Source of the DNA: a virus
Lineage: Duplodnaviria > Heunggongvirae > Uroviricota > Caudoviricetes
IMG/VR virus record: IMGVR_UViG_2585427737_000015
Reading direction: 5' to 3' (one strand)
Length of the DNA: 31,306 nucleotides
In this document: positions 3,592 through 31,082 of the stretch, in pieces
Position numbering within the stretch: the stretch's first letter is position 1
Layout of the letters: every line of letters starts with the position of its first letter
The notes under the pieces: model-generated
Told to the model about the DNA's origin: nothing
The model's database searches: none
The model's input: only the letters and a program-made list of their open reading frames with translations
Program-made: the position numbers and the translations under genes

Positions 3592-6036
3592 TTAACCGTC
3601 ATGCATCATGCTGGCACGGGCGCGCGCACGTTTATCCCGCTCGTATTTTTCGAGCGCATCCTGTAACTGGCGGTCGAGCTGTATCCCCGGCGTAGTACCG
3701 CCCGTCAGGCTGATGTGATATTCGTTTTTACTCTGGTCCACATAAGAGCGGCCAGCCGGTGCCGTAACCGGCTGATAAGCCTGATAGCCTGCATAAGAGC
3801 TGGTCGCCGGAATATAACCACCGCTGCCATACGTGGCGGCTTGAGTTCTGGCGGCGGTCTGGTCAAGTGTGTCTGACTCTTTGTTGATAACACCGAGTTT
3901 TTCCAGTACCCAGTCAATTCCGCTGCGCAGTTTGTTGAACGCATTAAGCGGCAGCATCAGCGCGTCAGCCAGTGCCTGCCCGAACATGACGCCAGTATCA
4001 CGGCAACGGTTCAGGGTGTCCTGGGTGGCTTTGACCGGGGCAATCAGGTTTTTAAACCACTGCCACGCGGCCTGTAACTTTTCGCCCAGCCAGTCAAACA
4101 CCGGCTTAAGTGGCGTGAACAGTTCCCCCACCGGCGCAAATGCCGCTTTCAGCCCTTCCATCACACCGCCAAAGAATGCGCTGACAGGCTCCCAGTATTT
4201 ACGGATAAGCAACGCCCCGGCGACAATGGCGGCCACCACGGCCACAACCGGCCAGCTAATCGCCCCGATGGCGGTCATAACAGCACTGCCAACCGTCGTG
4301 AAGACTGCCCCCATTGCGCCTGCTGCCGCGATGATGGCATTGATGCCAGTGATAACCGGCCAGGCTACAAGACCAATGGCACCGATGATGCCAATAAGCG
4401 CCAGCGCGCCACCGACAATGAGGCCGATGGTTGACGCCAGTGATTTGTTTTTCTGGATCCAGCCGTCGAGTTTTAACACATACTTTGTGGCCGTCTGCGT
4501 GAGCTTACGCAGTGCGCCTTCCTGCTGGTCAAACAGGTCAGTCCCCACCGCTTCATAAGCGGACTGAAACTCCTTAAAGTCACCGCCGAGGTTGTCCTGC
4601 ATGATTTTAACCAGCTCTTCCGTTTTACCGTCTGAGGCTTTCAGTGTAGCGGTCAGTTTGTCCAGCTTTCCGGTTGAGGCGGCAGTCATCAGCACGGCGG
4701 CGGCTGAACTGGCCTCCTCCCCGAAAATGGTTTTCATATATTCAGCCTTCTGAGACGTTCCCAGCTTGTGTTTATCAAAGCTGGCCTGAATCTCTTTCAG
4801 AATGGTGAACAACGGACGCATATTTCCCTTTTTGTCCGAGGTTTTAACGCCAAGCTCTTTGAGTGCATCCCATGCTTTTCCAGTCGGTGCCTGTAATCGG
4901 GTGACAACGGCACTGCCTCCCGTACCCGCCATTGACCCCCTAATTTTTGTCATGCAGCGCACCTGTCATGGCCGCTGCCTGTTCAAGACTTACACCTGCC
5001 GTCCTCGCAACCGGACCGAGGTAAGTCAGTGCATCACTGAGTCCCTGAAAATCAGCCGCCGACTTATTCATCGTTGCCGACAACACGTCGCCCACATGGC
5101 TGACATCATCATTTGAAAGCTGAAAGGCGGATTTCATCCCCAGCAACAGGGCGCGTTTTCTTCCATCGTGCGATGATTCGCCAGTGCCATATTCAGCGTG
5201 ACCGGCGTTGCCGCCTGAATAGCCGCAGCATCTCCACCCGCTTTCGCAATGATAATCTGCGCACCGGCCGCATCATCCGCTGAGGCGGCGGTATTGTCGC
5301 CGAGCTGGCGCGCCTGTTTGCGGAGCGCGGCCATTTCGGCGGAATCTTTTGCCACACCGAGCACGGCCTGCAATTCTGAGTTTTTCTGCGCAAACTCATA
5401 ACCGGGCATCAGCAGCTTAACTCCGGCCATCGTTCCCGCCGCCGCAATCCCCACACCGGCAGCGCCCACTGAGGCCATATTTCCGGCAAGTTCTTTTCCT
5501 GCCTGATAACGCTGTTTGACTGCGTTAAGTTTTGCCTGTTGTGCACTGACACGCGCCAGCGCGTCACGCTGCCGGTTAAGCTGTGCGGTGGTTTCACTGA
5601 TACGGTTTTTCAGTCCCTGCTCATCATGTGCAAGATTGCGGGTATTAATTCCCACAACGGCCAGTTCCCGCTGCTGGCGTTTAACGGAATCCGTCAGGCG
5701 GTTATATTTCGCCTGTAAGTCCTCCGCCGCACGCTTCGCGGATTCCAGCACTTTCGCCTGAGCACGTGTCGGACGTTCGGTGTTTTTAAACTGTGTGGCA
5801 AGGGCTTCGGCCTCCTGCCGTGCCTTTTCAAGTGCATGACCAGTCACGGCGAGCTGTGCGCTGGTCTTGCGAAATCCCTCAATACGGGATGCGTGACCGT
5901 TCAGCTCGCGCAGTGATTTTTGTGTTTCCCGGATATCCCCCGACAGCGATTTGCTCGCTGTGCGGATGGATTTAAACGGGCGGGATGCCTGGTCAACAGC
6001 CCTGAGCAATACCTGTAATTTTACATTGTTACTCAT
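3592..6036 (-). pseudogene. T: Tail tape-measure gene T, 815-codon span, interrupted by two compensating frameshifts
   Basis: Three abutting minus-strand ORFs: 5134..6036 (300 aa), 4940..5146 (68 aa, other frame), 3592..4962 (456 aa, back in the first frame). All three read as tape-measure sequence (Ala/Gly-rich hydrophobic core). Frame changes sit at a C-run (plus-strand GGG 5149-5151) and an A5 run (plus-strand TTTTT 4944-4948). Confidence 0.8.
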
Positions 6037-6456
6037 TCGTGTTTCCGCTTCGCCGGAGCGCCTTTTCGCGCCATGTGATGAGTTCGGTCAGGCTCATGGG
6101 ATACAGTTCTGATGGCGGCCAGTGAAATATCACTGCCACATCCGCCATCAGGTCATCGACCGAGAGATTTTTCGGAAACGTCACTGCACCGAGTTCGGCG
6201 ACAAAAAACCGACCACCTTACCGGCCAGCGCCACAAGGTCAGGCAGTTCCAGCGCGGCGACCTCCTGCTCGGTCAGCATCGGTGCCGTCATGCGCGGCAG
6301 CACTTTAATCAGTGCATCGACTTCGGAGTTTGCGACCGCTGCCAGACTGACACCGCGCAGCGTCCCGGCACTGGGTTTCATCAGCGTGACCTGTTCGATA
6401 ACCTGCTCACCACGTTTGACCGGATTGTCCAGGGTAATCACATTTTCTTTGTTCAT
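6029..6456 (-). CDS. E': gpE+E' tail assembly chaperone, product of programmed -1 ribosomal frameshift (142 aa)
   Basis: Slippery heptamer T-TTT-TTG on the minus strand (6202-6208). The -1 frame stays open for 57 codons (VAELGAVTFPKNLSV...WREKALRRSGNTNE) to TAA at 6029-6031, overlapping the T start ATGAGTAA; total 142 aa as for P2 E+E'. Confidence 0.7.
6181..6456 (-). CDS. E: Tail assembly chaperone gpE (91 aa)
   Basis: ORF track 6181..6456; P2 gpE length; ends VVGFLSPNSVQ. Confidence 0.85.
   Translation of the reverse strand: MNKENVITLDNPVKRGEQVIEQVTLMKPSAGTLRGVSLAAVANSEVDALIKVLPRMTAPMLTEQEVAALELPDLVALAGKVVGFLSPNSVQ
6202..6208 (-). promoter_or_regulatory. -1 programmed frameshift slippery site TTTTTTG in gene E
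   Basis: Seen directly in sequence; conserved tail-chaperone frameshift position upstream of the tape-measure gene. Confidence 0.7.
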
Positions 6457-6512
6457 GGTTTTCTCACTTCTGAATCGGGGTTAACCGGTCAGCCAGGCTG
6501 ACCGGATGAAAA

Positions 6513-7031
6513 TCACAGGCCGATATTGCGGCGGTGTTGCTCCAGCCGGTCGACGCCGTTCACCTTCTCAATCATGTTGATGGTGTCGATTTCGACCAGC
6601 TCCTTACCGTCCATCGTCAGCCGGAAATAGGTGCAGACCACGGAGATTTTCGACTCGGTGTCTTCTCCCTGTTTACCCTCGCCGGTGTCGATTTCTTTCT
6701 GACGTCCACGCATGACCACCTCGACGGCCACCGTTTCGCCGGTATCGTCGCGCTGGTAAGAGCCTGCAAAACGAATCGGGACGGCATCCACGCCGGTTGC
6801 GGCGTAAAGCTCCCAGATAACCGAATCCGGGAAGCCACCGAGCGACCACTCCATTGACAGCGCATCGTCATCAAGGCCGAGGTCTACCGGTGCGCTGCCG
6901 TTCATTCCCGCACCGCGATAGTTTTCGAGCTTACGGGTCAGTTTTGGCAGCGTGACGGACTTTGCAACGCCCTGATAGCTGTAGCCGTTCAGAAAGACGT
7001 TCATTAACTTGAGTTTGCGCGGCATTGCCAT
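6513..7031 (-). CDS. FII: Tail tube protein gpFII (172 aa)
   Basis: ORF track; P2 length and position. Confidence 0.85.
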   Translation of the reverse strand: MAMPRKLKLMNVFLNGYSYQGVAKSVTLPKLTRKLENYRGAGMNGSAPVDLGLDDDALSMEWSLGGFPDSVIWELYAATGVDAVPIRFAGSYQRDDTGETVAVEVVMRGRQKEIDTGEGKQGEDTESKISVVCTYFRLTMDGKELVEIDTINMIEKVNGVDRLEQHRRNIGL

Positions 7032-7043
7032 CGGTCAGGCTCC

Positions 7044-8234
7044 TTAATTGCTGTTAACCGAAGTGACCAGATTTGCCAGGTATTTATCGGTAATACGCTG
7101 GCGCAGGGTCAGGTTTTCGAGAGGAGGCACCGGTGTATAGTCGTAGTCGATATACAGTTTTCCGGCCTTGAGGGTTTCCGCATCGTTGGATTCTTCGCTG
7201 AACCAGCAGGTCGCATCCACGATATAGCCGTTTGTTTTCAGCTCACGGAATTTGGCATTGATGCCGTCAACGATGTCGCGAATCAGCGTTGCGGTGATGG
7301 GCTTGTCCACCGCCCACATGTGCGCCTCAGCCATCGTGTCGGCCAGCACCTGCGCGGTGCGGGTGTAGTTTTCAAAGAGGAACAGCGGGTCATCAGAGCA
7401 GGTACGGTTACCCCAGAAGCGGAAACCGTCACGGCGAATCAGCGTTGTGACGCCTGACTCATTCAGCAGGTCAGCATCGGTGCCGGACTCCTGCAAATCC
7501 CAGAATACAGATGCGCTGATGCCGGTAACACCGTTCACCCCGACGTTGGACAGCGTTTTATGCCAGCCCTGCTCCTGGTCGATTCTGGCACGCAGACCCA
7601 GCGCACGGGCGGTGGCATACGCGGTGGCGGTGGTACTGGCAACCGTATCCCATGCGAGGAAATCCGGCCAGATGACCATCAGCTCACGCTGGCTGAAATT
7701 CTGACGGTAGGCTTTCACCTCGGAAATGGTCTTACAGCCCCATGCGCTGATATATCCGAAAGCGCGCAGCTTCTGACAGACTGATGCCAGTGCAACAGCC
7801 ACCTCTTTGGTATCCAGCCCCGGCACACCAAGAATACGCGGTTTAACACCGGTTACCGACTCCGCCGCCAGCAGGGCTTTCAGTCCGGTGTACTGACCGT
7901 TTTCGTCAGTGGTGCCGATGATATTGGAAACGGTCTGCGCGAGTTTCGTTTCTTCGTCGTCGCCGGTGCCGTCTTCCACACGCACGACAACGGTGACCGG
8001 TTTTGACTGGTCAGCGATGGCCTGCAACGACGCCGCCAGCGTGCCTTTTTTACCGGCCTTTGCAATTGCGCTCTGCACATTGGTAATCAGCACAGGTTTA
8101 TTGAGGGGAAAGGTTTCCGCATCCGCATCGCTGGCCGTGCAGACCATGCCGACAATGGCAGTGGATACGGTGGAAATGACGCGGGTGCCGTCGTTAATCT
8201 CCAGCACCTGCACGCCGTGATGATAGTCACTCAT
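7044..8234 (-). CDS. FI: Contractile tail sheath protein gpFI (396 aa)
   Basis: ORF track; P2 length and position. Confidence 0.88.
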   Translation of the reverse strand: MSDYHHGVQVLEINDGTRVISTVSTAIVGMVCTASDADAETFPLNKPVLITNVQSAIAKAGKKGTLAASLQAIADQSKPVTVVVRVEDGTGDDEETKLAQTVSNIIGTTDENGQYTGLKALLAAESVTGVKPRILGVPGLDTKEVAVALASVCQKLRAFGYISAWGCKTISEVKAYRQNFSQRELMVIWPDFLAWDTVASTTATAYATARALGLRARIDQEQGWHKTLSNVGVNGVTGISASVFWDLQESGTDADLLNESGVTTLIRRDGFRFWGNRTCSDDPLFLFENYTRTAQVLADTMAEAHMWAVDKPITATLIRDIVDGINAKFRELKTNGYIVDATCWFSEESNDAETLKAGKLYIDYDYTPVPPLENLTLRQRITDKYLANLVTSVNSN

Positions 8235-8339
8235 CCGTTTAACTCCGTGGTTAATGGGTGCAACTATTTTCTGTTGTGCAGAGCATGAGACGCTATTTGA
8301 CCTGGCTGGTCAGGGGATGAAACAACAGATAAAGAAAAT

Positions 8340-8356
8340 GCGGGCAATTCGCCCGC
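8340..8356 (-). terminator. Candidate rho-independent terminator between the cargo protease gene and FI
   Basis: Hairpin GCGGGC-GAATT-GCCCGC (8340-8356) followed on the minus strand by a U-rich tract (plus-strand AAAGAAAAT 8331-8339). Confidence 0.35.
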
Positions 8357-8831
8357 CTGTCCTGATTTGTACTCACTCATTTTCCGCCTGACAATTTACA
8401 TAGCCCAAATGCTATCAAATCTGACAGTCTGCTTTGAGCGAAGAGCGGACTTGAGACTATTGTAAATGAAAACCATATAATTTTAACCGGCAGAAACACA
8501 TGAGTAATTTTAAGGCTAATTAGTTATCTGGGAGATGAGGGGCAAAGCACGATATCGTACACCAATGGAATAAGCTTATGATTAATATAAATATAAAAGG
8601 CAGAAAGCCTTCCTCAAAATGGCTTGAATCGGGTGCATCTGTCTGCGAAACGATTTTTTAGACGTTTTTATCGCTTTCAGTTCAGTTTTCCCCTCGAATC
8701 CAAGTGACAAAGCCGATTTAGTTTTCACACATCCGTACAATGTGCATCCCTCGATGAGCCTTTTCAGGCAAAGTTACGGGGATGCTTGATTCATTTAAAC
8801 TGAGTTAGTACAACTTAATTAATAATATCAT

Positions 8832-9824
8832 TTATGCTAGAGTTGAATATTCTCCATTTCCTCGGTCGGTGAGTGTTAATTCGCGGCCATTTTCTGTAAA
8901 TGTAATGGCATCCAGCAGGCTTTTTCCTGTTACAGCTATACCATATCCAAGGTTATCAATCTTTGAACTGTCCTCAGATGATATTGGTATTTGTACAAGC
9001 ATACCAACAACAAAGCCGTATTTGTTAATTATAGGGCCACCGCTATTCCCCCCCTTAACCCTAGCATTGAATAATAAAAAGTCTTGTGAATCTAAGTAAG
9101 AGTGACCAGAACCAACAATTCGCCCCTTTGACAGTCGGACAAACGAATTTATATGCGAAACGTCATATAACTTTAATGCATCAAATCCTGGAATGGGTGG
9201 AAATCCTATTGATAAAATTTCATCCAGTACCGAGGCTTTGGTTGAGACCTTAAGTGGTTGAATATTATCTTCATTCGGAATGGTTGTGAAAACTAAAGCG
9301 ATATCAATACGTTCATCGTTAGATACAAAGATTTTATGTATTGGTAAAGCCTCACCACCAGCTCTAAGTATCCTGATACTCTTCATGTCTTCAATAACAT
9401 GTCTGGCTGTAAATATCGTGTGGTTATTCCCAACAATAAAACTAGTACCAAGATCATGTGAACCATCACTTTTTTCAACAACAACAGGTAAAACGGAAGG
9501 ACTAAGGCGGTCTATGATTGACTCAAATCCATCAGCTATAAAATCATACTTTCCATATTTCGCATCTGATTCATTGAAATTCGGTGCGAAATAGCAACGG
9601 TCCAAAAGAGTATGTCCTGAAGATAATTCCATTAAAATACCTTCAGTTGCTAGCTTTTCACAATTGCGTATTAACTTCATCATATCGAGAGTATTTTCCC
9701 ACTCAGGTTTGAGACGGGTCAGGCTCTCAATTGTTTTTCTCTCTTTTACGTTATCGTTTTCCGGTTTGTCATAAAAATATTTCACTATTTCTGTTGGTGT
9801 TACATATGTTTTTTTTATAGTCAT
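8832..9824 (-). CDS. Cargo gene at the P2 Z/fun locus: N-terminal domain of unknown function fused to a trypsin-like (chymotrypsin-fold, S1/Trypsin_2-type) serine protease domain; 330 aa from ATG, 348 aa if the upstream GTG is used
   Basis: ORF 8832..9878. Motifs GTSFIVGNNHTIFTARHV (His160), ERIDIALVF (Asp192), VKGGNSGGPI (Ser279), track numbering, with triad spacing typical of DegP-like proteases. No Shine-Dalgarno before the GTG at 9878; a weak one before the ATG at 9824. AT-rich relative to the flanking phage genes. Confidence 0.7.
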   Translation of the reverse strand: MTIKKTYVTPTEIVKYFYDKPENDNVKERKTIESLTRLKPEWENTLDMMKLIRNCEKLATEGILMELSSGHTLLDRCYFAPNFNESDAKYGKYDFIADGFESIIDRLSPSVLPVVVEKSDGSHDLGTSFIVGNNHTIFTARHVIEDMKSIRILRAGGEALPIHKIFVSNDERIDIALVFTTIPNEDNIQPLKVSTKASVLDEILSIGFPPIPGFDALKLYDVSHINSFVRLSKGRIVGSGHSYLDSQDFLLFNARVKGGNSGGPIINKYGFVVGMLVQIPISSEDSSKIDNLGYGIAVTGKSLLDAITFTENGRELTLTDRGNGEYSTLA

Positions 9825-10217
9825 TTTTGTACCCGCGATGACGTTATTCCATATATTTTTCTTTGTAGAAAATATCACTATTGCTGGTAAATGTTAAGTT
9901 CAGTGCTCGCACTAAAGCTGGATGATCAACGTCGCCCTCGTATGGAAATCAGGTAAGATTCATGTCTACTTGGGGTCTAGGGTAGACAGCATAAAAACGT
10001 ACGATAGCGTTCGATTGGCTCTCCCCCCCGCCTATAAACCATGAGGTTGATAGGGTAGTATCGTTAGGCAATAGTATACATGTAAGTATCCAACCTAATT
10101 GGTCTTGAGATTTCTAACTAACGTGTCGTTATGTCCGCTCCTGGCACAGAGCGGACTGTCAGATTAGGCTTTACTCTGTTCTATAGGTATGTAAGCTCAC
10201 ACAAGAGTTCATACAAC

Positions 10218-10745
10218 TTATTGCGGCATTTCCGGCCATTCAGGATTTGCAGGATCCACACGACTGATCAGAACGCTGTAGCGTTCCCATGATTCCAGTC
10301 GGCTACGCTCCTCATCTGTTGCCATGTTCAGTCTGACCGCGCGCTCCAGCGGCAAAATCACGGATTCAGCATCTGCAAGAAGTCTGGCTTTCCGAATTTC
10401 TGCCTGCTGCTGTAATTCCTCTGCCGTATAAATGCGTTTAATCACTTTGCCGTCCTTAAACATCCAGTTCCCTGAAATGTCCGCCCGTCGGTTAGCAGTA
10501 ATATCCGCCACTTCAACAACACTTAATCCATCCGGTCTGATAGCTGTCACATCCTTTTCCACATAGTGGATGATATTATCTTTGTCGTACGCTATTTTTA
10601 TCGTGTCATCAGCAAAATACTTTTGTTCTTCGTACCAGTTCTTACCATCTTCTGAAAAAAACCAGACAACATCAAAGTCCTTTGTCAATTGATATTGTTC
10701 AACCGTTTTTGGATTACCCGCCGTAATATTTTTTAAATGCTGCAT
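10218..10745 (-). CDS. G: Tail fibre assembly protein gpG (175 aa)
   Basis: ORF track; P2 length; directly downstream of H. Confidence 0.8.
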
Positions 10746-26048: not shown

Positions 26049-28265
26049 ATGGAACTTAGATTAAAAAATGTTACCAGTTATAAGAAAGACGCCTTCACAA
26101 TACTGAATCTTGAAAAAAGAGTAAACATACTATACGGCCAAAATGGTTGTGGCAAATCTACCATTTCAAATTATTTCTACGACTCTACACACACAGATTA
26201 TAACGAGTGTGAATGTACCCTTCTTGACAATTACAAACCTCTTGTTTACAACACTAAATTTATTGAAGATAATTTCTACAATGCACAGGAACAAAAAGGT
26301 GTTTTTACATTAAGTAAAGAAAATGCAGATATTGAAAAACAATTAATTAAAAAAGAAGCAATTAAACAGCAACTTACAGAGCAATATAGACAAAAAAAAG
26401 GAGTGTTATTGAAATTAGAAGCAGAAATGGAAAAAAAAGAAAATGAATACATCGAATCGATCTGGAAAAAAACAGAACCAATCAGAAACTCTGTACTAAA
26501 AATCTTAATGAAAGGTAAAGTTGGCTATAAAAGACCTTTTTTTGAGATGATAAAATCATCCTCACCAATCACCTTTATTAATTTAAATGATATAGCAAAA
26601 GAATACTCTATACTATTAGAAAATAGAAACAATGAAACCGCATTAATAACTCCTTTACACCCATATACCCCATCAATTGATGATGTAAATACATTAGCAA
26701 CACCTATAATAGATACAAGCAATAGCTATTTATCAGAAACCATTAATAAACTTCATAATCTTGACTGGGTAAAAAAAGGTAAAGAACATTATTTAGACGG
26801 TTCTACATGTCCGTTTTGTCAGGAAAAAACTATTAGTCGCGAATTTTTAAATGCCCTTAAATCAATATTTGACGAAAGTTATTCAAAGAAAGTAAAACAG
26901 CTCTCAGATATAAAGTCAGTTTATGAGAAAAATACCATATATCATTTTAACGAAATACAAAACAATATATCATCATGTGCACTAATCAATGAGAAAGATA
27001 AAGAGATCATTATTTCCAATATTAAAATATTGCAAAACATTGCAGAAAAAAATTTAATAAACATTATTGATAAGATCAACAATCCATCAACATGCGTTAC
27101 ATTAGAAATTGATAAAGAACTAGAAAATCATGTTCAGGAAAGCATAGACGCTGTTAACAAAAAAATAAGAGACATAAATGATAAGGTTAAAAAACTCAAA
27201 GAGTATGAGAATAAAATCGGAAAACAAGTTTGGGGGGCTCTCCATGCTTTTTGCAGCGATGATTTAGAGAATTTATCCAAACACAAAGAAAAATTCTTTG
27301 ATATCAAAAAGAAAGTTCATGATGAATTAAATAATATTGAGCAACAAGGAAAAGAAAATAATCTCACAATAAAAGCATTGCGAGATAAAATATCTAACAT
27401 TGATTCTACGATAGACTCAATAAACACCCATTTAAAAAATCTAGGGATCTCTGGTTTTTGTATTGAAAAACATGCAGAAAGAAAAGATATGTACATTATA
27501 TCTCGACCAGGGCATACAAAAAACCAAAATGTTTATAGATCTCTTAGCGAAGGTGAAAAAACACTAATAACGTTTCTTTATTTTTTAGAGTGCTGTAAAG
27601 GTAAAACCGATAAAAATGATACCGATAGCAGGGATATTTTTATTGTTATTGACGATCCAATATCTAGTCTATCGCAAAACTATGTCTACGACATCGCATC
27701 AATTATTCATCACCACATTATAAAAAATGAATTAACAAAGAAGGTATTAATCCTTACTCACAATCTTTATTTCTTTCATGAACTTATTAAGCTATCTCCT
27801 AAAAGCAGAGAAGACAAACTATTTAAGAAAAACTATTATCTAGGTAGAGTAACGAAAAATGATTTTAGTATAATTACTGAAATACAAAAAAACAGCATAC
27901 AGAATGAATATCAATCTTTGTGGCAAATATTAAAAGATGCAAAAGATGGCAAAGCAAACAAAATCATAATACCTAATATTATGAGAAACATACTAGAATA
28001 TTATTTTGCATTTGTTCATAGAACAGATGCTCTACAAGATGAATTAACAAAGTTGGCACGCGACGATAGCAACAGTGATTTCAAAGCATTCTACAGATAC
28101 ATTAACAGAGGTTCTCACTCTGATGCGGTAAATATTACTGATATGGGCGACATAGACCCAGATAAATACCTAAAACAATTGAGAACAATATTTTCAGCTA
28201 CTGGTGACGAAATGCATTATTTAAAAATGATGGACGAACTAGAAGAGGAGAACGTTACCGCTTAG
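26049..28265 (+). CDS. Cargo gene at the P2 tin/old locus: 738-aa ABC/SMC-type ATPase with coiled-coil insert and CxxC zinc-hook-like motif plus a C-terminal putative nuclease domain; RloC/PrrC-like (AAA_13-type) candidate anticodon nuclease
   Basis: ORF track; Shine-Dalgarno GAGG before the ATG. Walker A ILYGQNGCGKST (aa 27-38), CPFCQ (aa 254-258) within Lys/Glu-rich coiled-coil sequence, signature-like LSEGEK (499-504), Walker B IFIVIDDP (530-537), LTHN (569-572), and C-terminal R646-x3-E650 ... H690 resembling the PrrC Arg-Glu-His triad. Strongly AT-rich by eye. Confidence 0.6.
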   Translation: MELRLKNVTSYKKDAFTILNLEKRVNILYGQNGCGKSTISNYFYDSTHTDYNECECTLLDNYKPLVYNTKFIEDNFYNAQEQKGVFTLSKENADIEKQLIKKEAIKQQLTEQYRQKKGVLLKLEAEMEKKENEYIESIWKKTEPIRNSVLKILMKGKVGYKRPFFEMIKSSSPITFINLNDIAKEYSILLENRNNETALITPLHPYTPSIDDVNTLATPIIDTSNSYLSETINKLHNLDWVKKGKEHYLDGSTCPFCQEKTISREFLNALKSIFDESYSKKVKQLSDIKSVYEKNTIYHFNEIQNNISSCALINEKDKEIIISNIKILQNIAEKNLINIIDKINNPSTCVTLEIDKELENHVQESIDAVNKKIRDINDKVKKLKEYENKIGKQVWGALHAFCSDDLENLSKHKEKFFDIKKKVHDELNNIEQQGKENNLTIKALRDKISNIDSTIDSINTHLKNLGISGFCIEKHAERKDMYIISRPGHTKNQNVYRSLSEGEKTLITFLYFLECCKGKTDKNDTDSRDIFIVIDDPISSLSQNYVYDIASIIHHHIIKNELTKKVLILTHNLYFFHELIKLSPKSREDKLFKKNYYLGRVTKNDFSIITEIQKNSIQNEYQSLWQILKDAKDGKANKIIIPNIMRNILEYYFAFVHRTDALQDELTKLARDDSNSDFKAFYRYINRGSHSDAVNITDMGDIDPDKYLKQLRTIFSATGDEMHYLKMMDELEEENVTA

Positions 28266-28514: not shown

Positions 28515-29345
28515 CTATGAATCCCCCCAACCATCAGCGACCGGATACGTGAATTTTTTCCCGTCATAATTTACGGTCGCTCTACGCGCCAGCGCCTCAA
28601 GCTCCCATCGCTGCGGCCTGATACCGTTCTGAGCAAGGTCAACGCGGATACGGGTGATTTGCAATCGTTCAGACCTGGTCAGTCTGGCAGATGGTGCAAT
28701 TTCATGCGGTTTTAACGGGCTTCCGTTTCTTTGCTGACGGTTTGGCGTTCTCAGGTCGTATTTTAATGCGCCCCTGAGCGCCCTCACGACCTCCGGTTCA
28801 TTCCATTCAATAACACCGTCATCAACCAGATTAAGCACTGCTGCGGCGTGCTCAGAAGGTGTGGGAGCCGGTAACGAAGTATCACCACCGGTGAGCTTTC
28901 CACAGTTATTGACAGGACTCCGAGGCGCGGCGATGCCGCTTTTTAAAGTCAAGGGCTCAACGACCGGAACTTTCGGCACAATGCGCCAGTCCGTCGTTCT
29001 GGTGATATGAATATGACGCGCGCCGAGATGCGGCGCGTAAATGCCGACCACTCTCTCGACTTCTTCCTCATACTCGTTAACGTCATCCGACGGGCTACGG
29101 GCGACCCTGACAGTCTGACAATCGCGCGGGACATTTGCCCCACCCTGCGCGCTGATATACAACGCAAAATCACCACTGTCTGCGGCGGCGCGTGCAGCCT
29201 CGACGCGCTCGTCAAACTCATCAGCAATGCTGACGCCGCGAGGCAATTTGCGTAGTTCACGGTAAGCCCCCATTGTCGGCAGACCAACCGTTTTAAATTG
29301 CGGGATGCGCCACGTTGACGCCCATGCGGTAACAGCCGCGGCAGT
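28515..29345 (-). pseudogene. A: C-terminal fragment (about 277 codons) of replication initiation gene A, truncated at its 5' side by the IS element
   Basis: ORF 28515..29360 (...TAAAVTAWASTWRIPQFKTVGLPTMGAYRELRKL...) reads as the C-terminal part of P2 gpA (about 761 aa in P2). No Shine-Dalgarno at the track start; in-frame stop at 29370-29372; the upstream sequence is IS-derived. Junction placed at about 29345, plus or minus 10. Confidence 0.6.
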
Positions 29346-29421
29346 GTTGCGTATTTTCATGAAAGGAGATCACTCAATAACTTCCATCGAGATCGGGTAA
29401 TAACATTTGAACAGATCGCTG

Positions 29422-29540: not shown

Positions 29541-31082
29541 ATGCCAACAGTTCCAATTTCTATGAGAAAACTTAAAGAAATTCTTAGGCTTAAATACGGT
29601 GTTGGACTCAGCCATCGACAAATTGGTCGTAGTCTTGCAATCTCCCCTTCCGTTGTATCCAGATATGCTAATCGGGCGGCTCAACTTGGCATAAAGCAGT
29701 GGCCCTTACCTACAGGATGGGATGATACAAAACTAAAACATGCGTTCCTTCAGACCCAGGTTAAGATGAAGAAGCACTCTCTGCCTGACTGGGCTACAGT
29801 ACACCGGGAACTGCGTAATAAATGCGTGACGCTGCAGCTACTCTGGGAAGAATACTGTGAGCGTAATCCAGGCGGTTTTTACAGCTATAACCATTACTGC
29901 CGGATGTACCGTGAATGGCTCAAAACCACTTCACCATCAATGCGTCAGGTACATAAAGCTGGCGAAAAACTTTTCGTTGATTACTGTGGACCTACCGTTG
30001 GCGTTACCGACCCTGAGACCGGAGAAATAAGAACTGCTCAGGTCATCGTAGCTGTTCTCGGGGCATCAAGTTACACATGGGCAGAGGCCACCTGGTCTCA
30101 GCAGCTTGAAGACTGGGTGATGAGTCATGTTCGCTGCTTCCAGTGGTTGGGTGGCGTTCCTGAACTTGTTGTTCCGGACAATCTGAAAAGCGCCACATCC
30201 AGGGCATGTAAGTATGATCCTGACGTTAACCCTACCTACCAGCAGATGCTTGAGCATTATAATGTCGCAGTTTTGCCTGCGCGGCCACGTAAACCGAAAG
30301 ATAAAGCCAAAGCTGAAGTTGGCGTTCAGGTTGTTGAACGCTGGATCATGGCCCGAATCAGGCATGAGATCTTCTACAGCCTTGCATCGCTTAATCAGCG
30401 CATTCGGGAGTTGCTGGAAAGACTGAATAACAAAATAATGCAGAAGTTGGGTTATTCACGTGCAGAACTCTTCATCCAGCTTGATAAACCCGCACTGAAG
30501 CCTCTTCCTGAAGCCAGTTACAGTTACACCCTGGTGAAGAAAGTCAGAGTTCATGCCGATTACCACGTGGAAATCGACAAACATTACTACTCGGTTCCAT
30601 GTTCGCTGTTAGGCCAGCAACTGGAAGCATGGATCTCCGGAGAACTGGTAAGACTCTTCAATCAGGGGCAGGAGGTTGCTGTGCACCCGCGCAAGCGTAC
30701 TTATGGCTACAGTACCCGCAACGAGCACATGCCTGAAGCTCATCGACAGCATGCCACCTGGACGCCAGAGCGTCTTCTGGAATGGGCGGGGCACATAGGC
30801 AGTGAAACTCATAGTTATGTGCTTCATATACTGAACTCTCGTCCACATCCGGAACAAAGCTATCGCTTCTGCCTTGGACTCCTGAACCTTCATAAAAAAT
30901 ACAGTAAAGCCAGACTTAATGCAGCATGTGCAAGAGCTCTGAAAACAAAGGTATGGCGTCTGTCAGGTATTAAATCGATCCTGGAAAAAGGTCTGGATAA
31001 ACAACCTGTTCAGGATCCAAAACCAGATCTGTTATCCACGATGGAACACGAAAACGTACGCGGCAGTGAGTATTACCACTGA
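29541..31082 (+). CDS. istA: IS21-family transposase IstA (513 aa)
   Basis: ORF track; N-terminal helix-turn-helix region, DDE-type core; Shine-Dalgarno AAGGA 7 nt upstream; followed 11 nt later by istB. Confidence 0.8.
   Translation: MPTVPISMRKLKEILRLKYGVGLSHRQIGRSLAISPSVVSRYANRAAQLGIKQWPLPTGWDDTKLKHAFLQTQVKMKKHSLPDWATVHRELRNKCVTLQLLWEEYCERNPGGFYSYNHYCRMYREWLKTTSPSMRQVHKAGEKLFVDYCGPTVGVTDPETGEIRTAQVIVAVLGASSYTWAEATWSQQLEDWVMSHVRCFQWLGGVPELVVPDNLKSATSRACKYDPDVNPTYQQMLEHYNVAVLPARPRKPKDKAKAEVGVQVVERWIMARIRHEIFYSLASLNQRIRELLERLNNKIMQKLGYSRAELFIQLDKPALKPLPEASYSYTLVKKVRVHADYHVEIDKHYYSVPCSLLGQQLEAWISGELVRLFNQGQEVAVHPRKRTYGYSTRNEHMPEAHRQHATWTPERLLEWAGHIGSETHSYVLHILNSRPHPEQSYRFCLGLLNLHKKYSKARLNAACARALKTKVWRLSGIKSILEKGLDKQPVQDPKPDLLSTMEHENVRGSEYYH

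Follow-up and report, generated by a model that had tools for sequence, protein, structure and literature searches.

The gap between the FI gene and a protease gene

The window, by which we mean the whole 31,306-nt stretch of DNA that was analysed, derives from a P2-like prophage, and positions 8235-8831 separate two of its minus-strand genes: the FI sheath gene (7044-8234), which forms the downstream flank of the gap, and a cargo gene (8832-9824) encoding a 330-aa S1/Trypsin_2 serine peptidase (Pfam PF13365, E 1.8e-17). The gap is 100% identical to several ETEC chromosomes. The original prediction described it as AT-rich DNA lacking any ORF of 60 or more codons on either strand, and both parts of this description hold, the AT-richness beyond about position 8400. 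The largest ORF touching 8235-8831 encodes 52 aa (8582-8740, minus strand, TTG start) and the rest encode at most 45 aa. Across 8300-8800, GC content is 0.355-0.435 in 200-nt steps, versus 0.53-0.625 in the tail genes at 6500-8299; it is 0.48 in the FI-proximal 8200-8399 and 0.325-0.40 in the protease gene. Because this low GC equals the level of the protease gene, the AT-rich part is compositionally cargo. PGAP annotates no feature within 8235-8831 in the 13 E. coli genomes that contain the complete stretch, and none within the 319 nt of 8513-8831 in the 40 of 41 carrier genomes that were listed.

The PGAP product of the peptidase gene is WP_000152899.1, and our gene start follows PGAP; the longest ORF extends to 9878. 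His142, Asp174 and Ser261 are invariant in an alignment of 31 sequences. The family is rare but widespread, with proteins of about 330 aa in Pseudomonas, Nitrospina, Bacteroidota and cyanobacteria; it usually stands alone, and its N-terminal domain of some 130 aa is uncharacterised. In PADLOC, the best matches are confined to the protease domains of retron type XI, LmuA and HamA; a role in defence is a possibility. A retron type XI was considered and rejected because no reverse transcriptase (RT) is present: the RT-Protease_XI match covers the protease domain alone (residues 133-297, E 7e-13), Pfam finds no RT domain in the 330-aa protein, and no RT lies within the cassette limits described below (8421-10152). 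Upstream of the gene lie some 250 nt of non-coding DNA (9879-10132) with a promoter-like site at 9897-9869 (TTAACA-17-TATTTT, extended TG).

On the FI side, the alignment of positions 8235-8450 with P2, P2-EC53 and two P2-like prophages of other cargo (loci L072 and L073) runs column for column. The FI ribosome-binding site, read from the sequence as GGAG at 8243-8246 (minus strand), is identical in all four and precedes the FI ATG at 8234-8232. Homology to the annotated P2 genome (AF063097) places the late promoter P_F at 8258-8329 on the minus strand. The P2 annotation puts the start of the F operon 24-26 nt before the FI ATG and the activator site 69-97 nt before it; transferred by alignment, transcription would start here at about 8258-8260 (CAC), and the Ogr/Delta activator site would span about 8301-8329, with TGT-N12-CCA as in P2. 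The spacing to the FI ATG is near-identical to that of P2, the start triplet is likewise CAC and the activator site is homologous, although the latter has a 3-nt deletion and several substitutions here. The alignment agrees with the expectation that P_F lies within the roughly 100 bp closest to FI.

Directly upstream of the activator site, a consensus scan and folding identified an intrinsic terminator on the minus strand (8331-8356), consisting of a stem at 8340-8356 and a U-run at 8331-8339. Read from 8356 to 8331 it is GCGGGCGAATTGCCCGC followed by ATTTTCTTT, forming a hairpin of 6-7 pairs, six of them G-C, and then AUUUUCUUU, as is characteristic of intrinsic (rho-independent) terminators. 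With a fold of -14.7 kcal/mol (z -2.6) and its retention in P2, P2-EC53 and the two other P2-like prophages, the terminator that had been listed as a candidate at 8340-8356 proves to be real. The consensus scan found no other minus-strand terminator-like site between the G stop codon and the protease gene, so that late transcription of the V operon probably continues through the cargo gene, and the hairpin at 8331-8356 probably halts read-through from both cargo and V operon ahead of P_F and the F operon.

Inverted repeats and the limits of the protease cassette

By mapping of GenBank features, positions ~8360-8451 are the repeat known at the P2 Z/fun cargo site as "right inverted repeat". In a search of a phage collection, 8380-8464 fell under features of this name in AJ512682 (titled "Bacteriophage P2-EC53 proviral Z-region"), AJ512680, AJ512683 and AJ512677, records that we take to stem from Nilsson, Karlsson and Haggard-Ljungquist (Mol Biol Evol 2004). 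To judge by the title of that work, site-specific recombination at the repeats has reportedly been proposed already. The core of the right repeat comprises AATCTGACA (8418-8426) and a 24-nt palindrome (8427-8450), which on the minus strand reads as 8-nt arms, GTCCGCTC and AAGCAGAC, around an 8-nt spacer, TTCGCTCA. Its counterpart, the core of the "left inverted repeat" (10133-10165), is homologous to the left inverted repeat of AJ512682, starts 53 nt downstream of the G stop codon and comprises the palindrome GTCCGCTC-CTGGCACA-GAGCGGAC followed by TGTCAGATT, with a fold z of -2.8. The two 33-nt arms, 8418-8450 and 10133-10165, are inverted relative to each other and 85% complementary.

Comparison with syntenic P2-like prophages, which had been suggested together with the original prediction, gave a clear boundary: the backbone is conserved up to 8450/8464, and the cargo side differs. 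L072 and L073, with their other cargo, share the backbone with the window only up to 8464 and 8450, respectively, and again from 10130 and 10133, so that the cargo site is delimited by the repeats. Being homologous to annotated repeats and enclosing the switch of cargo, the pair belongs to the P2 Z/fun inverted repeats. About 500 bp beyond P_F had been thought to lack an explanation; because ~90 nt of these, at ~8360-8451, are the known right repeat, the stretch to be explained shrinks to 381 nt.

The site between G and FI has been termed "moron position 2" (PMC3573123) and is one of two variable loci of P2-like phages (PMC9122126). The locus in the window resembles P2 Z/fun in its position between G and FI and in its backbone, including P_F, the terminator and both repeats, and it resembles neaT of CFT073 in that a single AT-rich foreign gene comes with its own signals (PMC3573123). 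It differs from Z/fun in that the cargo is an S1 peptidase and in that the untranslated tail between gene and right repeat, at 381 nt, is unusually long. Whereas fun(Z) and neaT lie on the strand opposite to the tail genes, the protease gene is co-directional with them.

The protease gene travels as a single-gene cassette of 1.73 kb (8421-10152). In E. coli CP66-6 (L002, 6001-7732) this cassette recurs at 99.2% identity, not between G and FI but in an island with DUF4236 and DUF2971 genes, and in strain A22 (L106, ~7001-8700) the downstream stretch and the same peptidase gene lie beside vat. Counting the P2 G-FI site, the DUF4236/DUF2971 island and the vat island, E. coli has the cassette in no fewer than three contexts, at 99% identity. 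The match to L002 and L106 runs through the 8-nt spacer of each core (right, TTCGCTCA; left, TGGCACA) and then breaks off; in these non-P2 contexts, the outer arm and all sequence past it are different. Relatives of the protease at 81-87% identity (L076, L077 and L101) are found between, or next to, one core of each spacer type. Site-specific exchange at the cores would produce such a breakpoint pattern, in keeping with the old proposal. The breakpoints inside the cores are a clean case of natural cargo exchange at Z/fun and could help to find the recombinase, and the exact cassette limits are useful for cloning the protease gene with its native signals in studies of anti-phage or virulence activity.

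The untranslated tail of the cassette

Between the protease gene and the right core, two segments can be distinguished on the minus strand: an inner cassette end beside the right repeat (8451-8512), recognised by blastn to L069-L071 and L102, and an AT-rich untranslated tail proper of 319 nt (8513-8831), recognised by genome and locus comparison. In L069-L071 and L102, where the protease is 80% identical, the homologue of 8451-8512 directly follows the stop codon; in blastn, 8414-8512 aligns with L069-L071 at 77%, starting 9 nt past their stop codon. The remainder is shared piecemeal, 8745-8831 with both L067 and L075 and 8639-8744 with L075 only, and no relatives of 8513-8638 were found. The interval from stop codon to right core is 381 nt here versus 172 nt in L076, ~75 nt in L069 and L102 and ~57 nt in L101, with a range of 57-190 nt among the relatives. 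The spacing between the protease stop codon and the next ORF of at least 80 aa is highly variable in 50 distant loci: 28 of the 48 with such an ORF fall below 150 nt. Judged from these comparisons, a long tail does not characterise the protease family.

Within E. coli, 8513-8831 was present in 41 of 5426 genomes, at 42 places and never below 99% identity, and it adjoins the protease gene in each of the loci examined (L001, L002 and L106). Since all 41 copies are at least 99% identical, conservation does not separate selection from recent spread. A MITE or other dispersed repeat was rejected, because the stretch occurs essentially once per genome and adjoins the protease gene in all examined loci. 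In blastn searches of phage and plasmid collections with 8380-8900 as query, matches were confined to the repeat core and the protease gene and never covered 8465-8782; in the phage collection no match extended past 8464, the 69 nt of protease gene in the query included. Scans of viral and metagenome contigs for diverged tails returned mostly identical copies, together with two 81% relatives that lack the tail.

The sole supported element in the tail is a stem-loop of 13 pairs in the 3′ UTR (8744-8785, minus strand), which begins 46 nt past the protease stop codon and contains an inner GCCU-GAAA-AGGC hairpin. It folds at -20.5 kcal/mol (z -3.8), and three of its pairs are kept through two-sided changes among the window, L075 and L067, a comparison of three sequences only. 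A covariance model of the stem-loop, run against 80 sources (the window and 79 loci), recovered only the three founding lineages and the near-identical L002 copy, marking it as a lineage-restricted 3′-UTR element. As it has no U-run, it is most simply read as a stabiliser of the mRNA 3′ end or a processing barrier; its probable role is to protect the 3′ end of the protease mRNA or to define it. The consensus scan also found a weak terminator-like hairpin at 8595-8613 (minus strand), followed by a U/A-rich run and made of three G-C pairs plus G-U pairs; at -8.4 kcal/mol and z -1.0 it is not significant, but could be the 3′ end of that mRNA. The minus strand also has promoter-like hexamers, at 8617-8590 and 8486-8459, from which a short transcript ending at the backbone terminator could start, although 11 such matches were found versus 6.2 +/- 2.8 expected by chance in AT-rich DNA.

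These elements bear on an alternative, a regulatory or antitoxin-like RNA encoded in the tail as a partner of the protease. It would be either a cis-acting 3′-UTR element or a separate small RNA ending at 8356-8331, and would control protease expression or activity in the lysogen. Such an RNA would fit the joint movement of tail and protease gene (three genomic settings, identity of at least 99%), the stability and covariation of the stem-loop, and the position of the two promoter-like sites upstream of a strong terminator. Joint movement, however, is expected of any DNA inside the cassette limits; protease relatives at 80-87% identity do without most or all of the tail; and the stem-loop model is empty in 76 other loci, its hits being confined to three lineages. 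An Rfam scan of 7800-10400 (E<=10) gave nothing in 8235-8831 and only two weak matches elsewhere (E 1.7 and 8.9), and the fold of the whole tail is unremarkable (minus strand, z -1.7; plus strand, z -0.6). A ToxIN-like type III antitoxin RNA in particular was rejected, as Tandem Repeats Finder (8200-10250, minimum score 30) detected no tandem repeats of the ToxI or any other type. A structured RNA partnering the protease, one of the three explanations originally offered, thereby loses its footing as a trait of the family, and we consider a regulatory RNA of any of these kinds unlikely.

A second explanation offered at the outset, that the tail is a decayed second cargo gene or the remnant of an earlier cassette, draws on the different sets of relatives of the tail segments, on a loose repeat of the cassette-end motif 8475-8496 at 8585-8606 (82% over 22 nt), which could be a relic of an older end, and on the paired cores of L077, according to which cassette arrays do occur. 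No trace of a gene was found, however. Ten of the 11 open frames of at least 24 aa had no Pfam or PHROGs match better than E 0.16, and joined into a 391-aa query they had no match at E<=10 among 5.8 billion protein clusters; PGAP marks no pseudogene in the gap; and in no relative does a second gene lie between protease gene and right core. Nor does the family have a conserved partner: none emerged among the neighbours of the protease gene in 72 loci, where the largest cluster comprised five loci from one Bacteroidales subclade. We regard a decayed gene as very unlikely.

Least probable, and in our view barely credible, is a protein of fewer than 60 aa, such as the 52-aa ORF at 8582-8740 (minus strand) or a 27-aa ORF at 8578-8661 (plus strand): both exist and annotation often misses small proteins, but the former starts with TTG and in L075, the nearest diverged relative, carries a stop at codon 4 and a 1-nt frameshifting indel, the ribosome site of the latter is weak, and no identical or similar protein occurs in the 5.8 billion clusters. 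Even taken jointly, a lineage-specific small RNA and a micro-protein in the tail have a low probability.

The reading we prefer is that the gap has no single function and is the backbone/cargo junction at the second cargo ("moron") site of P2, between G and FI. The protease mRNA would end in a 381-nt AT-rich untranslated tail (8831-8451) bearing the stable stem-loop (8785-8744); the cassette would end at the right inverted repeat (~8451-8360), with the 24-nt palindromic core as the point of cassette exchange; the backbone terminator (8356-8331) would stop cargo and V-operon read-through; and Ogr-activated P_F (8329-8258) would then start the tail operon. We hold with good confidence, on the strength of the alignments, that the gap joins P2 backbone (8235-8450) to the tail of a protease cassette (8451-8831). 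This account is built on observed segment homologies, cassette limits and breakpoints, and on the observed absence of coding and RNA-family signals; that promoter and terminator are active, that the stem-loop has the role given above and that the rest of the tail is neutral are what we infer from it. The architecture is one already known, the control and recombination sequences of the P2 cargo site, plus an untranslated tail whose unusual length is most likely a neutral patchwork from past recombination rather than a gene or partner RNA. Of the original explanations, a regulatory spacer is borne out only weakly, insofar as backbone signals and a 3′ UTR lie there. With this a false lead is removed, the largest non-coding gap of the prophage being without sign of a hidden gene or partner RNA.

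Core sites in other contexts and further features of the prophage

The repeat core also occurs on plasmids of Yersinia, Salmonella, Klebsiella and Serratia, adjoining accessory genes. Right-type cores (spacer TCGCTCA) were seen in L104 (4017-4040) and L105 (2289-2312), on Yersinia ruckeri and Salmonella plasmids, and the accessory genes that plasmid cores of this type adjoin include one for a HEPN-associated protein; because of this placement, the same sites may serve the exchange of plasmid cargo. In L077, two palindromic cores stand side by side (9-68), and L073 has cores at 4014-4037, 5624-5655 and 6115-6138, a third core-like copy lying inside its cargo region. Such doubled and third cores in relatives suggest arrays of cassettes separated by cores.

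Integron attC sites and the pdif modules of Acinetobacter plasmids are cassette systems bounded by short palindromic recombination sites. The locus shares with them a single-gene cassette between inverted palindromic cores (8-nt arms around an 8-nt spacer) and the recurrence of one cassette in several settings, the breakpoints lying where the spacer ends. It differs from integrons in that no integron integrase was found beside the core sites, and the core sequence is, we presume, unrelated to dif or cer. We tentatively propose, as a possibility to which we give somewhat less than even weight, that the 24-nt cores at 8427-8450 and 10133-10156 are the sites of an uncharacterised integron-like system that shuttles single accessory or defence genes among P2-like phages, islands and enterobacterial plasmids. 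If so, the long tail would be a stack of scars from successive exchanges, and the novelty would lie in the recombinase, in the mechanism and in how broad the cassette pool is.

Two further features lie elsewhere in the prophage. In the other cargo site of P2, which follows portal gene Q, a 738-aa protein (26049-28265, plus strand) matches PDC-S06, a PADLOC candidate defence family, over its full length (E 5e-254); the next two ORFs (28515-29360, minus strand, and 29541-31082, plus strand) have no PADLOC match. In the tape-measure gene T (3592-6036, minus strand), about 200 nt are out of frame, with indels near 5151 and at 4944-4947: relative to the intact gene of strain 120899, a 1-nt deletion is followed by two further 1-nt deletions, and five in-frame stops fall between codons 300 and 356. 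The prophage may accordingly be tail-defective, or gene T may contain sequence errors.
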